IMG/VR virus record: IMGVR_UViG_3300031452_000172
Span: 1 to 39,962 of that record
Source of the DNA: a virus
Lineage: Duplodnaviria; Caudoviricetes
Direction: 5' to 3' (one strand)
Length of the DNA stretch: 39,962 nucleotides
Positions 5,920-39,546 of this stretch are shown in pieces. Both the position numbers and the translations under genes were made by a program. The notes below the pieces were generated by a model. The model saw only the letters and a program-made list of their open reading frames with translations, was not told the origin of the DNA and searched no databases. Every line of letters starts with the position of its first letter. Within the stretch, counting starts at the first letter, position 1.

Positions 5920-6172
5920 CGGTCGCGCTCCAGGTGGAGTTCGTGATGGGAAGGGCAGGGGTGGGGTCGAGCGATAGTTGGGTAATCAACCGTCGGGCGG
6001 CTTCATCAAAGCCGGGATGCCGGTCCAGCGAGCACTGCACGTCGAAGGTGCAAAACCCACCGCCACTGATTGTAGAACCCAACCGGCAGCGCTACGGTTG
6101 AAAAGTGGCCCGGCCGTCATCACACGGCCGAGCCGCGAAGCAACCAACCGCACGAACGATTGGAGACCTCGC

Positions 6173-6916: not shown

Positions 6917-6961
6917 CTAGGAAAGCACAGCTTGCCTTACGTTGGCAAGTTTTGATTTCCT
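6917..6961. promoter_or_regulatory. Two 17-bp operator-like sites (OL-like)
   Basis: GGAAAG-cacag-CTTGCC (6920-6936) and GGCAAG-ttttg-ATTTCC (6944-6960). Confidence 0.65.
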
Positions 6962-7641
6962 CGGTGTCGAATCAGCTCGTATTCGCGCACGACGGTGTCT
7001 GTCGTAACAAAGGAACTGAGCGGCCACTCTTCCTGAATGTCAGCTCTCAACCGCGACAAGATGACCCGTTCACTATCGATAAACAAAACACGCCGCACGA
7101 TCTTGTAGGAACGAAAGTCCGGCTTCGCTTCTTTTTTGAAATGTAGAACCGCATACTCCCCGGCTAACGGCCGTTTGTTTGGATCGACGTAAACTACGTC
7201 GTTGATCTCATACTTTGGACTGAGAGCAACAGTTGAGAAAAACATTGCATATAGACCTGGGTAGTCCTTAAAGAATTCAAATCGCCTTACATAAAAATAA
7301 GGCGCGTCGTTGTATATGTTATATACTCGCGCATCTTCGTCAGAAACATGGAACAACACAGGGAAATCAAAGACGCCAACTGGCCTATCTATGCCAGAGT
7401 TCGGCGACATTCCATAGTAGCTCTGCTGCTCTACTATCAGCGCACCGTGTGTCGCTAGATCTAAGTTCAGCTTGAGTATGGAAATGGCTTTTAGCAGGTT
7501 GTGAGTGGATGGCTCATTAACCCCTGCTTCCCATTGACCTACAGCAGCGCGTGTGACGCCTAGGCTTTTTGCTAGCTCCCACTGCTTCAGCCCCATACGA
7601 AGGCGAGCAGCTTTGATGGCATTTCCGAACGGCGTTGACAT
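6937..7641 (-). CDS. CI-like repressor (XRE HTH plus S24-like C-terminal domain)
   Basis: IKAARLRMGLKQWELAKSLGVTRAAVGQWEAG HTH; PKYEINDVVYVDP S24-like segment; divergent from cro; start may extend to 7698. Confidence 0.88.
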   Translation of the reverse strand: MSTPFGNAIKAARLRMGLKQWELAKSLGVTRAAVGQWEAGVNEPSTHNLLKAISILKLNLDLATHGALIVEQQSYYGMSPNSGIDRPVGVFDFPVLFHVSDEDARVYNIYNDAPYFYVRRFEFFKDYPGLYAMFFSTVALSPKYEINDVVYVDPNKRPLAGEYAVLHFKKEAKPDFRSYKIVRRVLFIDSERVILSRLRADIQEEWPLSSFVTTDTVVREYELIRHRGNQNLPT

Positions 7642-8063: not shown

Positions 8064-8492
8064 CTACGGCTCGAAACCGATCAGTCGGGCCATGCGAACA
8101 AACTCGCCTTTAGATACACGCCCTTTACCTGCGTGCGCGTCGAGAGCGCTACGAATCGTTTCGCTGAGCAGAGCTGTGCCGTTTGGATCTCTTGTGCCGA
8201 GAATGCGTCGTGTTTGCGCTGGCAAAGTAGCGGGATAGATAGCACCTCCCGACCGCTCGCCACTGATTACTCCCTCATCGTGCATGCGAAGCATCAAGTC
8301 GGAAGCCAGCTCCACCTCCTTGTCCTCGTAGCCTCCGAAGTCACCTTCGTTGAAATCAGCGTCGGTTTTCTCTCCAGGCGAAAAGGCGTGCGAGACGCTC
8401 AGAATATCCGCCGCCGGGTATTTTTGGTGCAACCGCATTATGAGACGCAGGCCGAAGCGGGCCCGCTGTTCAAGTCGCTCTTCATCGGTCAC
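8064..8492 (-). CDS. Hypothetical protein (antisense moron, 142 aa)
   Basis: AGGAGA RBS plus GTG at 8492; opposite strand to the early right operon. Confidence 0.6.
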   Translation of the reverse strand: MTDEERLEQRARFGLRLIMRLHQKYPAADILSVSHAFSPGEKTDADFNEGDFGGYEDKEVELASDLMLRMHDEGVISGERSGGAIYPATLPAQTRRILGTRDPNGTALLSETIRSALDAHAGKGRVSKGEFVRMARLIGFEP

Positions 8493-13216: not shown

Positions 13217-13807
13217 GTGACTGAAAAAACTATAACGATCCCCGAAATCAACCTGCAGAGTATGGTCGTGTCGATCGTCGGCAGGACCCCGCTGCTCACC
13301 AACCGGTTCAGCGAAAAGTCGATTGAGCAAATCGAGGACAAGCAGCAGCACCGGGCCAAGGTCGCCAAGGAGGCGCGCAACCCAGAGGCCGAGTTCAGGG
13401 ACGCGGCGCACCTGATCTCCCCGGGCGTCTACGGGTTCCCTGCGGTCGGCATCAAGAAAGCACTTGTGGCGGCCGGCGGCCGTTTCGCCGACGAGAAGAT
13501 GACCCACCTACGGGGCGTCATCAACGTCATGGGCGACCTTATCCCGATCGTCGGCCCGGCACCGACCATGCGCAGCGACACGATCCGGCTGCAGGGGTCG
13601 AAAAGCAGCTTGGCCTATCGGCCGCAGTTCTCGCCGTGGGCCATGGACGTGCCGATCGTCTTCAACGCCGGGATCATCGGCCAGGCGCAGATCCTGAACC
13701 TGTTCCAGATCGCAGGTTTCTCCGTCGGCATCGGCGCGTGGCGTCCCGAATGCAACGGTACCTTTGGGCAATTCGCCCTCAACGAGTCGGCCGCCCTTGC
13801 GGCTTGA
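13217..13807 (+). CDS. Stand-alone RAMP/Cas7-like RNA-binding protein (Vipr-like)
   Basis: Beta1 VSIVGRTPLL, FPAVGIKKAL (Cas7 IPGSSxKGAL-like), YRPQFSPW, and C-terminal Gly-rich loop GIGAWRPECNGTFGQF; GAGG RBS. Confidence 0.78.
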   Translation: MTEKTITIPEINLQSMVVSIVGRTPLLTNRFSEKSIEQIEDKQQHRAKVAKEARNPEAEFRDAAHLISPGVYGFPAVGIKKALVAAGGRFADEKMTHLRGVINVMGDLIPIVGPAPTMRSDTIRLQGSKSSLAYRPQFSPWAMDVPIVFNAGIIGQAQILNLFQIAGFSVGIGAWRPECNGTFGQFALNESAALAA

Positions 13808-13811
13808 CGCA

Positions 13812-13874
13812 CCCTAAGCACAGTGGATCAACGAACAGCACGCCATCGCTCACCGTACCTATCCAAAGCACAGT
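13812..13874 (+). ncRNA. Pentameric (ASC-NN) array 1; candidate guide RNA
   Basis: 13 triplets at 5-nt spacing: CCC AGC AGT ATC CGA AGC GCC CGC ACC ACC TCC AGC AGT; begins 5 nt after the RAMP stop; strand inferred. Confidence 0.6.
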
Positions 13875-13903
13875 ATGATCCATGCTTGCGAGGGTTATCG
13901 TTA

Positions 13904-13966
13904 CACCTAGCTTCGCATAGCAAACCGGAGCCTGCCGGAGTCAACCGGATCGCACCACACCAAAGC
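13904..13966 (+). ncRNA. Pentameric (ASC-NN) array 2; candidate guide RNA
   Basis: 13 triplets at 5-nt spacing: CAC AGC CGC AGC ACC AGC GCC AGT ACC ATC ACC ACC AGC; strand inferred. Confidence 0.68.
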
Positions 13967-13988: not shown

Positions 13989-14774
13989 ATGATAGCGCTG
14001 ATAAGTCTTCGCGAATATTTCGCAGCGGCCGGCTCCTCCTTCACCAAGGAGGATGCCGAGGTCATCGGTCCCCATATCGAGACGCTAGCCGAAGAGGGCG
14101 ACGCCAGCGAGCGCCGGGTTGTCGATGTCGCGCGATCGTCGAATTCCCCGCTCCACACCTATTTCGATTGGAACGACGAGTCGGCAGCCGACCGGTTCCG
14201 GCTGCATCAGGCCGGCACGATGCTGCGCTCGATCCGTGTCAGGTTCATCGAGAACGACCGCCCGCGCACGGCTCCCGCCTACAGGATCGCCAGGACGCAG
14301 CCGAAGTCGGCCTTCACCCGCGGCCACAACGTGCTGCACGGGCAATCGGCCGCGGCCGTCACCAAGGCCAAAGACGCCTTCGACGAACTGACCGCCTGGC
14401 GCGCTCGCTACGCGCCCTTCGTCGCCATCTGGCAGGATTTCGCACAGACCTTCCGTGGGGTCGCGAATCAGATCGGGGAGGCCGAGGACATCGTGAACAC
14501 GGCCGGTCTCGACGACCGGACCGACCTCGCTTTGACCGAGTTGCAGGTGTGCCTGTCGGCTGTGAGCGCATGGCGTGAGAAGTACGCTGCGACCTCGAGC
14601 GAATGGGCATCGCTTAGCGAGCAGGCCGCGTTCATGCAGACGGCGATCGACGAAGCCATGCGCGTGTTCACCGACGTGCAGAAGGCGGCCGAGCGGCCGT
14701 GCCTGCGGTGTGGGAAGGCGTTTCAAAGCAGCGGGCAGGAAAACCGGTTGTGCGAGCGGTGCGGGACGAAGTAG
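13989..14774 (+). CDS. RAMP-associated protein with C-terminal Zn ribbon
   Basis: VVDVARSSNSPLHTYFDWNDESAADRFRLHQAG motif; CLRC-x13-CERC at the C-terminus. Confidence 0.75.
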   Translation: MIALISLREYFAAAGSSFTKEDAEVIGPHIETLAEEGDASERRVVDVARSSNSPLHTYFDWNDESAADRFRLHQAGTMLRSIRVRFIENDRPRTAPAYRIARTQPKSAFTRGHNVLHGQSAAAVTKAKDAFDELTAWRARYAPFVAIWQDFAQTFRGVANQIGEAEDIVNTAGLDDRTDLALTELQVCLSAVSAWREKYAATSSEWASLSEQAAFMQTAIDEAMRVFTDVQKAAERPCLRCGKAFQSSGQENRLCERCGTK

Positions 14775-14859
14775 ATACGAAAATCCGAGGGGCTTGATTT
14801 CCGCTCGCGGCCAAAGCGTATCTCGCGCTATGCCAAGCGGCAAGCATGGAGACCTAGAT

Positions 14860-15129
14860 ATGGCAAGTTACAATGCGGCGATAGGGACAATGATTGGAGC
14901 TAAATTCGATCCTGATCGAGCAAATGTGCGCCACTTCGAGGCCGCGTCTGACGATCATGCGACGGAAACGATGTGGCTTTGGGTTAGGACATTACCTTTG
15001 TTGTTGGTTCCTTCATCTCCTACTCACGTAAGACTAAGAGAAGTGGTTACGGCAACGGATCGGCGTCTAGTGAATACATGGCCACTTCCAGATCAGTCGG
15101 AAACTCAGACCGATGCCGACCGGACCTAA
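14860..15129 (+). CDS. Small hypothetical protein (89 aa, AT-richer moron)
   Basis: GGAGA RBS plus ATG at 14860; atypical codon usage. Confidence 0.5.
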   Translation: MASYNAAIGTMIGAKFDPDRANVRHFEAASDDHATETMWLWVRTLPLLLVPSSPTHVRLREVVTATDRRLVNTWPLPDQSETQTDADRT

Positions 15130-15258: not shown

Positions 15259-15316
15259 AGCAATGTCAAGCTCGGCCAGTCGAAGCGTCGTCTGGCGAAC
15301 CGAACCGGACCAAAGC
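15259..15316 (+). ncRNA. Pentameric (ASC-NN) array 3 in the leader of the sigma gene
   Basis: 12 triplets at 5-nt spacing: AGC TGT AGC GGC GTC AGC CGT GGC ACC ACC ACC AGC; ends in CCAAAGC as found at or near the end of arrays 1 and 2. Confidence 0.55.
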
Positions 15317-15334: not shown

Positions 15335-16201
15335 ATGACGGTACAAGCCAGCGTCGGTCATCTCCTGTTGAAAGCTGCGCACGACGCGCCGAAGCTCGAT
15401 GCCGAGGCCGAACGCGACCTCGTAGAGCGCTTCCACGAAGGTGACCGAGTCGCGCTCGGTCAGTTGATCATCGCCAACGTCAAGCTCGCGATCCGACGCG
15501 CCGCTGCACTGCGCGGCTACGGATTGCAGGCCGACGATCTGGTCCAGGAAGGCATCATCGGCCTGCTTGAGGCGGCATCCCGCTTCGACATCGACCAGGA
15601 GGTTAGATTTTCTACCTACGCGTTGTGGTGGATCCGGGCCACCACCATGGAATTCGTTCTCCGCAACTGGTCGATCGTCCGCACGTCTATGGATGGCGAT
15701 CAGAAGCGGATGTTCTTTCAACTCCGGCGCACGAAGGAACGCTTGTTGCGGGACCCCTCGACCGACCCGGCTTCGATCCGCGCGGCAATCGCATCGGCAC
15801 TCGGTGTCCCTGAGCGGGAGGTCGAGATCATGGAAGCCCGGCTCGGCGGCGATGTCTCGCTGAACGCACCCGCGTCATGGGACGAAGACGGAGAGGCTGA
15901 GATCGGCGACAGTCTCGCTGACGACGCTCCGCTTCCCGACACCATCGCATTCAGCATGATCGAGACCGACAGCAAGGAGATCGCGCTGCGCGACGCCATG
16001 AGCCAACTCGACGACAGGGAACGCCTCGTCGTGCAGGAACGCTGGCTTACCGACGACATCGCCCCGCTCGCGGCACTCGGCGAGTTCCTCGGCATCAGCG
16101 CCCAACGGGTAAAGCGCATAGAGATCGCGGCGATCGCCAAGCTGCAGGCCGGCGCTGCCGGTGTCTGGGCTGCAGAGAGCGCGGCAGGCCCCACGTACTG
16201 A
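15335..16201 (+). CDS. rpoH: RpoH (sigma-32)-family RNA polymerase sigma factor, phage-borne
   Basis: Region 2 DDLVQEGIIGLLEAASRFD...RFSTYALWWIRA, RNWSIVR, RpoH-box-like QKRMFFQLRR, region 4 LGISAQRVKRIE; ORF open from 15263 but the ATG at 15335 has a GAGG upstream. Confidence 0.88.
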   Translation: MTVQASVGHLLLKAAHDAPKLDAEAERDLVERFHEGDRVALGQLIIANVKLAIRRAAALRGYGLQADDLVQEGIIGLLEAASRFDIDQEVRFSTYALWWIRATTMEFVLRNWSIVRTSMDGDQKRMFFQLRRTKERLLRDPSTDPASIRAAIASALGVPEREVEIMEARLGGDVSLNAPASWDEDGEAEIGDSLADDAPLPDTIAFSMIETDSKEIALRDAMSQLDDRERLVVQERWLTDDIAPLAALGEFLGISAQRVKRIEIAAIAKLQAGAAGVWAAESAAGPTY

Positions 16202-38352: not shown

Positions 38353-39546
38353 TTGCAACTGCATTATCCACTCAATCCCACTACGGGCGTCGAGGACCAG
38401 ACGCAGCTCCCATGGACGAACGGCGTTCCACAGACTGGGCAGGAAGGCTCCTATCCGCCTTTCGCGCTCTGCACCGAACCGATGTACGAGATCGTCAATG
38501 TGCTCGTGCAGGCCGGCATCATTCCATCGTCGTCGGACCCCTACCAACTCACCCGTGCCATCCGCGGCGGGCAGCTCGATTTTGCGGTGGCGACGGGCAC
38601 GCTCGATGCAATCGTCGCGACCGTTGGCCTCGCCCACCTTGCCCTAAGGGCGGGTTTGCCTTTCACCGTGACGGTGCCGGGAGGTGTGGCGAATTCGACC
38701 ACCACTCCAACGCTGACCATTACTGGTCCGGGTGGGGCAGGCCCGGTGACAGGGCCGATTCGCAAGACGACGGGTGCCAATGTCGCCATCGGCGACCTGC
38801 CCCCCAACGCGTTCCTGACGTTCCGTTCGGACGGAGTAGGCTTCCGCCTGCTTTCGGTGGTACTCGCGTCCGACGTTCTTGCATTGATTCAAAGCAGTCC
38901 CGCAATCCAGTCGGCAATCGGCGTCATCGGTCGGTCGCAGGTCTTCACGGCATCGGGAACCTTCAACCCTCCCGCCGGCGTGACGCAAGTCGAAGTCGAA
39001 CTCATCGGCGGCGGCGCCGCTGGCGGTGCTTCGAGTAACACTACGGCGGGCGGTGGCATCCTCGGAAACCCCGGCGGCGGAGGTGGTGGTGGCGGCTACT
39101 GCTACGGACGCATCAATCTCACCTCTTCGGGAGGCGTCCCGGTCACGATCGGAGCCGGGGGCCTCGCGACGGCAAACGCTGGCGGGGGCAACGGTGGCTT
39201 ATCTTCGTTCAGCAGTTATTGTTCTGCCGGAGGTGGCTTTGGCGGTCCCTTCGGGTCAGGAACCATCGCCTTCGGTGGCGCGGGCGGTGCCGCAACAGGC
39301 GGCTTGCTCAATCTACCCGGTGGGCAAGGCGGCGCGTCCGGCACCAATTCATCGACCGTCACGAACAGCAACCTCTACGTGATCTTCGCACGTGGTGGTC
39401 AGGCCCCGCGCGGCCTCGGCTCGATCGACCTCTGCAACACGGGTGGTGCGGGCGTCGGGTACGGCAACGGCGGCTCGGGCGCGTCGGGCGGCTCCGGTCT
39501 CGCGGGCGGCAACGGCGCGCCCGGTATCTGCATCGTGAGGTGGTGA
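38353..39546 (+). CDS. Tail fibre protein with Gly-rich C-terminal domain
   Basis: EIVNVLVQAGI...QLTRAI N-terminal anchor; FTASGTFNPPAGVT..VELIGGG...GAPGICIVRW. Confidence 0.85.
   Translation: MQLHYPLNPTTGVEDQTQLPWTNGVPQTGQEGSYPPFALCTEPMYEIVNVLVQAGIIPSSSDPYQLTRAIRGGQLDFAVATGTLDAIVATVGLAHLALRAGLPFTVTVPGGVANSTTTPTLTITGPGGAGPVTGPIRKTTGANVAIGDLPPNAFLTFRSDGVGFRLLSVVLASDVLALIQSSPAIQSAIGVIGRSQVFTASGTFNPPAGVTQVEVELIGGGAAGGASSNTTAGGGILGNPGGGGGGGGYCYGRINLTSSGGVPVTIGAGGLATANAGGGNGGLSSFSSYCSAGGGFGGPFGSGTIAFGGAGGAATGGLLNLPGGQGGASGTNSSTVTNSNLYVIFARGGQAPRGLGSIDLCNTGGAGVGYGNGGSGASGGSGLAGGNGAPGICIVRW

Follow-up and report, generated by a model that had tools for sequence, protein, structure and literature searches.

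Three arrays of five-base units in the genome of a temperate phage are probably the guides of a phage VIPR system, in which A-(G/C)-C has replaced GGY as the fixed triplet, together with the loss of two residues of the guide-binding protein Vipr that bind the first guanine (G1). Natural recoding of a known system likely gave rise to this variant locus. The window (the whole virus record, 39,962 nucleotides) encodes an integrase, a CI-like repressor, a primase, a terminase, and head and contractile-tail genes, and the virus is therefore a temperate myophage. The nearest named relatives of its Vipr protein are in Lichenihabitans records, which makes an alphaproteobacterium of that family the probable host.

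VIPR is a recently described system of programmable, PAM-free DNA binding. Its guides are built of GGY triplets and variable dinucleotides (NN), one target base is skipped on the wobble base, and rival phages are repressed (10.64898/2026.04.26.720920). In phage SUSP1, according to the available part of the text of 10.64898/2026.04.26.720927, Vipr contacts G1 through H17 and D177 and G2 through R138 and W178, the pocket for the third base (Y3) excludes purines, and the D177A substitution abolishes silencing. GGY>AGY is among the perturbations reported to abolish SUSP1 silencing (10.64898/2026.04.26.720920).

The product of the 196-aa gene at 13217..13807 (+ strand) is a Vipr homolog, predicted to be a RAMP/Cas7-like guide-binding protein from its sequence match, its structural model, and residue mapping. 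Its sole sequence match in the PDB (177,635 solved sequences) is SUSP1 Vipr (36pp_D, E 1.4e-4). The model (pLDDT 81) matches Cmr/Csm3/Cas7 folds in Foldseek, with Z up to 10.9 against Cmr/Csm3/Cas7 chains (rmsd 3.8, 153 aligned), and its glycine-rich loop GFSVGIGAWRP aligns to that of SUSP1; together these results place it among single-RRM RAMP Vipr proteins. Residue mapping puts N29 and A174 at the SUSP1 H17 and D177 positions, so the canonical G1-binding pair is absent, and R135, W175, and R176, the counterparts of SUSP1 R138, W178, and R179, are kept. Among the matches listed, close homologs have Asn at the H17 position in 120 of 120 cases, and A, S, C, or G at the D177 position in 108, 7, 4, and 1. 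SUSP1 K82, which is needed for repression, aligns with Gly in a poorly aligned region. Because D177A and GGY>AGY each abolish SUSP1 silencing, activity of the window system presumably needs compensation.

An accessory (vap) gene beside vipr, one of the marks of VIPR, is present as a putative 261-aa gene at 13989..14774 (+ strand), with homologs in 40 of 66 Vipr loci (the window counted); its product has no similarity to SUSP1 Vap1. Pfam and NCBIfam gave a name to neither Vipr nor Vap. Arrays 1 (13812..13874) and 2 (13904..13966) are intergenic between these two genes, each with 13 triplets in 5-nt steps, and array 3 (15259..15316) has 12 triplets; each is predicted to yield one guide RNA from the + strand. 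Array 3 lies directly upstream of a phage-borne RpoH-like sigma factor gene (15335-16201; its match is below curated cut-offs), an arrangement that is the same in two related loci, L012 and L016.

The initial annotation described these arrays from hand counts over 38 units, and a recount by script returned every figure exactly. Triplet position 1 is A in 25 units, position 2 is G or C in 34 (G 21, C 13), and position 3 is a pyrimidine in 37 (C 32). Both NN lists, for arrays 1 and 2, stand as written, and these arrays are in different phase and separated by a 29-nt linker (13875..13903). The periodicity also held against shuffled controls; a motif-free score as high was reached by 2 of 2000 dinucleotide shuffles for array 1 and by 0 of 2000 for each of arrays 2 and 3. 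The commonest sense triplets are AGC (11) and ACC (9), 14 different triplets occur among the 38 units, and exact GGY accounts for only 2, so the arrays are not canonical GGY arrays on the sense strand. With 12-13 units of fixed triplet and variable NN, each array falls within the 9-16 five-base units of VIPR. A genome-wide autocorrelation scan ranked array 2 first and placed array 3 among the top windows. The second-highest period-5 autocorrelation is in an AT-richer stretch at 8131-8210, where only a weak 7-unit run on the minus strand was called and no array of the A-S-C kind was found near 8140.

The same grammar extends to the clade. Across 22 hand-checked arrays from eight loci (264 units), the sense triplet is A in 65% at the first position, G in 69% (181 units) or C in 23% at the second, and C in 80% or T in 16% (a pyrimidine in 252 units) at the third, with column entropies of 1.48, 1.22, and 0.92 bits for the triplet vs. 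1.97 and 1.91 bits for NN. The last NN is A-rich in clade arrays (A in 19 of 22, then A in 15 of 22) and often followed by AGA, which echoes the GGCaa-GGCag ends of canonical VIPR arrays; a scoring matrix was used to place the array ends, which biases the terminal triplet. It had been proposed that each guide carries about 24 nt of information in its NN. The NN do carry it, but the last NN (AA) is mostly scaffold-like, and about 20-22 nt are informative. The proposed comparison of NN and triplet variability cuts both ways, since NN are more variable than triplets across different guides and less variable between orthologous guides.

Few other RNA or transcription signals were detected around the arrays. 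The linker folds no better than shuffles (z -0.06), and the same holds for the three stretches downstream of the arrays; a short 3' end motif of about 5 nt is all that is shared with relatives. Rfam gave 0 matches in the window, a scan for terminators of the window found none, and a promoter scan returned one promoter-like site (14847-14874) vs. 0.5 expected.

Comparison of Vipr loci links the repeat to the residues that contact it. The survey drew 60 loci from three collections and added five named phages, SUSP1 among them, so that 66 were searched with the window; 10 near-duplicates were dropped and 56 were scanned with a motif-free array caller, which called 37 and left 19 below threshold. 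A first version of the caller was too noisy, and the counts are from a tightened version. Of the loci in which an array was called, all 26 that have D or E at the D177 position are G-first on the vipr-sense strand, SUSP1 included. The median G1 fraction is 0.94 in this group (n=26) vs. 0.11 in loci with A, S, or C (n=11), where some array calls are out of phase. The Mann-Whitney p of 2e-6 for G1 fraction by D177 residue is inflated, with only three changes on the tree, two of them on long branches; the covariation evidence is a few evolutionary events, not 37 loci. Six short rows were left out of the Vipr tree. There the 11 rows of the window clade group together (support 100/99), and the sister group (96/99) is an H/D lineage with sense-strand GGY in its downstream arrays.

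Divergent triplets occur elsewhere among the surveyed loci. Distant Vipr lineages with A or S at D177 (L007, L008, L009, and L011) have sense-strand arrays of AGC or of mixed GGC/AGC, which suggests that the A-first switch arose more than once. Three loci that keep His and the acidic residue (L032, L048, and L055) have other triplets, namely GTT/GTC, in which G2 is relaxed, and GGA, in which Y3 is relaxed. An Asn/Ala subclade (L002:5604-6100, L003:5601-6150, L004:5601-6070, and L054:210-470) has looser arrays, often A-G-A or N-G-C, that are punctuated by a repeated ATGAAAAGTTT motif.

The initial annotation left two options for the strand, a GGY-type RNA read antisense or a sense-strand subtype that recognizes A-S-C. 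Transcription from the minus strand, with a GGY-like G-(C/G)-T scaffold, is unlikely. Antisense position 1 is G in 32 of 38 window units and in 210 of 264 clade units, exact GGY is found in 11 of 38 antisense triplets vs. 2 of 38 sense triplets, and the target matches described below fit either strand, because either DNA strand can be bound. Yet the minus strand is less GGY-like than had been implied; position 2 is mostly C (21 of 38), and position 3 is a purine in 7 of 38 window units and 64 of 264 clade units, although the SUSP1 pocket excludes purines. An antisense RNA would also mean that all arrays are inverted compared with those of the sister lineage and of the 26 canonical loci, place the conserved end motif at the 5' end, and need the reverse of what the protein has done, which is to lose the G1 contacts and keep the G2 contacts. 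The sense-strand reading, in which the strand is inferred, is much better supported, because relatives carry their GGY arrays on the vipr-sense strand and because the loss of G1 contacts and retention of G2 contacts match the loss of G1 from the repeat; the 3' end motif adds to this.

If the arrays are guides, their NN should match targets once the skipped base is allowed for, as the initial annotation proposed to examine with gapped patterns. With a one-base skip, nine NN (18 bases) of array 2 matched seven IMG/VR contigs; in the four contigs with frames read, the match is in one gene family and in frame, and every skip falls on codon position 3. The gene is annotated as a baseplate wedge subunit (baseplate J/gp47) in two contigs, and its named relatives are Methylobacterium prophage proteins. 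The full guide matches 21 of 24 bases in six contigs and 20 of 24 in one (20-21 of 22 without the terminal AA), and the L016 allele of array 2 matches all of its first 16 bases in five of the seven. The three columns that were not part of the search give p 0.053 for the window allele, and two such columns give p 0.005 for that of L016. Chance is expected to yield about one IMG/VR contig per 18-base gapped pattern; reversing the NN order gave one contig with 0 of 6 extra bases matched, and a two-base skip gave none. A control without a skip was run on fetched genomes only. Of 24 clade guides compared with four target phage records, array 2 and the L016 ortholog of it alone scored above shuffles; against four small records, array 3 orthologs and, marginally, two other guides did so too.

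One phage with a predicted array 2 target (L086:1190-3030; G279:C1, about 60190-62030) itself encodes a VIPR, in which His/Glu occupy the G1-contact positions and the array is staggered, each guide ending GGCaa-GGCag. For none of the eight parsed guides of this phage does the match to the window exceed shuffles. The distal tail-fibre region of the window itself (38863-39048 and 39039 onward) is 46-66% identical to that of the phages with predicted array 2 targets, which hints at a shared host or at module exchange.

A scan with 16 bases of array 3 returned 15 contigs. In one of these (L106), the match is in frame within the N-terminal domain of a tail fibre; the window guide matches 20 of 24 bases, tied with one out-of-phase sequence, and the L012 guide matches 26 of 34, the next best being 23. 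Compared with 150 tail-fibre homologs, the window guide encodes the commonest residue at 9 of 12 columns. The unsearched tail-fibre columns give p 0.0002 for the window guide and likewise for that of L012, or about 0.003 after allowing for 15 candidates. The domain is present in 4 of 301 Lichenihabitans-family genomes, where array 3 matches 20, 17, 15, and 14 of 24 bases. When array 3 was searched with its terminal AA, two contigs holding one sequence were found with the skip off the wobble base, and matches in 3 of 251 genomes were judged to be chance. Array 1 had no target in 31 genomes, in the contigs, or in 381 genomes, and its eight contigs at 16 bases extend to 19 of 24 at most and were also judged to be chance.

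By computation, two of the three guides thus match targets over at least 80% of NN bases (21 of 24 and 20 of 24) with the skip on codon position 3, as in VIPR, and within the window no self site exceeds 15 of 22-24 bases under a one-base skip. No perfect full-length target was found for any array. It is very unlikely that these are real VIPR guides whose tail-gene matches are accidental, with the true targets or skip rule being different (host genes or decoys). One random match per 18-base pattern is about what is expected, and array 2 also matches host genes at 2-3 mismatches (19-20 of 22) in 17 of 401 genomes, none of them in a baseplate gene; ten of these matches presumably resemble serralysin-type proteases. 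The zero count of the backwards-read control in that scan carries no support, as this control is not codon-like. Array 1 is without a target, the baseplate gene did not turn up in any of 31 genomes sampled from the Lichenihabitans genus, and array 2 matched just once there, in a host gene. Against chance, two different guides both match phage tail genes in frame, codon position 3 being the skipped base, the controls with reversed order and a two-base skip do not extend or do not match, and allele differences between guides follow target families (F/Y for array 2, Q/A for array 3, and six extra units in L012).

In pooled comparisons of orthologous guides, NN differ at 1 of 38 positions vs. 23 of 57 for triplets (Fisher p 2e-5). 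L016 array 3 is identical to that of the window at 22 of 22 NN bases and differs at 9 of 33 triplet bases, and the third downstream array of L016 shares 15 of 16 NN bases with window array 2 and differs at 14 of 24 triplet bases. In L012 (82% protein identity), 19 of 22 NN bases of array 3 are kept. Array 3 of L016 contains an in-frame stop, so the NN identity is not due to coding constraint. Alignment of L016 with the window covers both flanks (96% and 85%) but fails across the array region; L015 has the same sequence as the window and is uninformative. By these comparisons, the NN are under selection, and the proposal that NN carry the information is borne out by their conservation and by the gapped matches with the skip on codon position 3. 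In L012, array 3 (5993-6080) has 18 units, in which six extra NN continue the tail-fibre motif, and a fourth array (6937-6984) follows the sigma gene.

A system that is inactive or decaying, with Vipr killed by the change of D177 to A and the triplets drifting, would account for the loose triplets (14 kinds in 38 units), the lack of a perfect target, and the fact that D177A abolishes SUSP1 silencing. This is a highly improbable account, as vipr has a dN/dS of about 0.03 vs. L016 and 0.09 vs. L012, the Asn and small-residue state is found in 120 of 120 homologs among the matches listed, NN are held while triplets drift, and arrays differ between near-identical vipr genes. Array 3 does overlap the longest possible start of the sigma-factor frame, but the shuffle tests, the intergenic position of arrays 1 and 2, and the stop-bearing L016 array 3 with its identical NN leave almost no probability that the periodicity is chance or a by-product of coding.

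For guides of a recoded VIPR, the mode of action would be analogous to that of SUSP1. The three guide RNAs are likely transcribed from the same strand as vipr, and one Vipr subunit would bind each 5-nt unit, polymerizing on the sense-strand guide with the triplet buried and NN presented. The first-base pocket may not demand G and may prefer A (65%), while the second position would take G or C and the pyrimidine pocket would be kept. NN would pair with double-stranded DNA, with every third target base skipped, and the bound filament would silence transcription of tail genes of rival phages. Array 2 would direct it to the baseplate-wedge gene and array 3 to the tail-fibre gene of rival phages or prophages, with the wobble base skipped.

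As far as the available text on SUSP1 goes, the window system resembles its type II VIPR in having a RAMP-fold protein of about 200 aa, a phage-borne vipr with an accessory gene, 9-16 five-base units of fixed triplet and variable NN, arrays on the vipr-sense strand (here inferred), a one-base skip on the wobble base, predicted targets in rival phages, and no self target. It differs in its A-(G/C)-C triplet, in the change of H17/D177 to N/A, and in an accessory gene that is unrelated to Vap1 and placed after the arrays. SUSP1 guides have a structured tail of about 40 nt, and none was found downstream of the window arrays by comparison of folds with shuffles. The predicted targets are structural tail genes, whereas those of SUSP1 VIPR are a satellite recombinase or lysogeny regulators. 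Class 1 CRISPR systems share the RAMP backbone (Cas7/Csm3/Cmr) in fold and filament logic; unlike theirs, the window guide is gapped rather than contiguous, and no CRISPR array or other cas genes were seen in the locus.

VIPR itself and G1-relaxed repeats are already known in print (YNNNG and WGT/NN). Alternative vrRNA repeats NNNGG, YNNNG, and NNNNG are named in the methods of 10.64898/2026.04.26.720920, and its text links no protein residue or target to them. YNNNG is a G1-relaxed form that fits most window units (N-G-Y), but the window favours A at position 1 and has C at position 2 in roughly one quarter to one third of units. Non-canonical VIPR-like 5-mer arrays (GAC/NN, CAC/NN, WGT/NN, and TGH/NN) are given in the available text of 10.64898/2026.10.21.760802, which likewise places divergent triplets beside Vipr-like folds; WGT/NN resembles the arrays of relatives such as L017. 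AGC, WGC, and NGC are absent from that text as far as available, as are residue covariation and targets. The H17/D177-repeat covariation and the targets described here are new with respect to the available VIPR preprint texts, whose figures (such as Fig. S10 of 10.64898/2026.10.21.760802) or data may include the clade, and it may be among the 667 systems of 10.64898/2026.04.26.720920 (Figs. S16-S17, data S4).

Non-GGY repeats are therefore listed in print, in the texts compared, without an explanation, and the tie between the repeat change and two residues that contact the lost base offers a direct two-by-two test of scaffold reading. The results suggest that the one-base skip rule survives a change of scaffold, and NN that stay fixed while triplets drift are a simple way to find guides under selection. 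Window Vipr and its A-first guides are a candidate orthogonal protein-guide pair. Solo vrRNAs redirect a rival's Vipr, according to the available text of 10.64898/2026.10.15.759431, which led to a more tentative idea: the window may have a naturally orthogonal VIPR, in which the change of His/Asp to Asn/Ala lets A-first guides be loaded and rival GGY systems cannot load or redirect them. We hold this to be possible but doubtful, and it fits with a predicted target phage carrying its own His/Glu VIPR. If it is true, D177A and GGY->AGY, each lethal to SUSP1 VIPR, would rescue each other, and the switch would have arisen more than once as an escape from guide hijacking of the kind described for solo vrRNAs.
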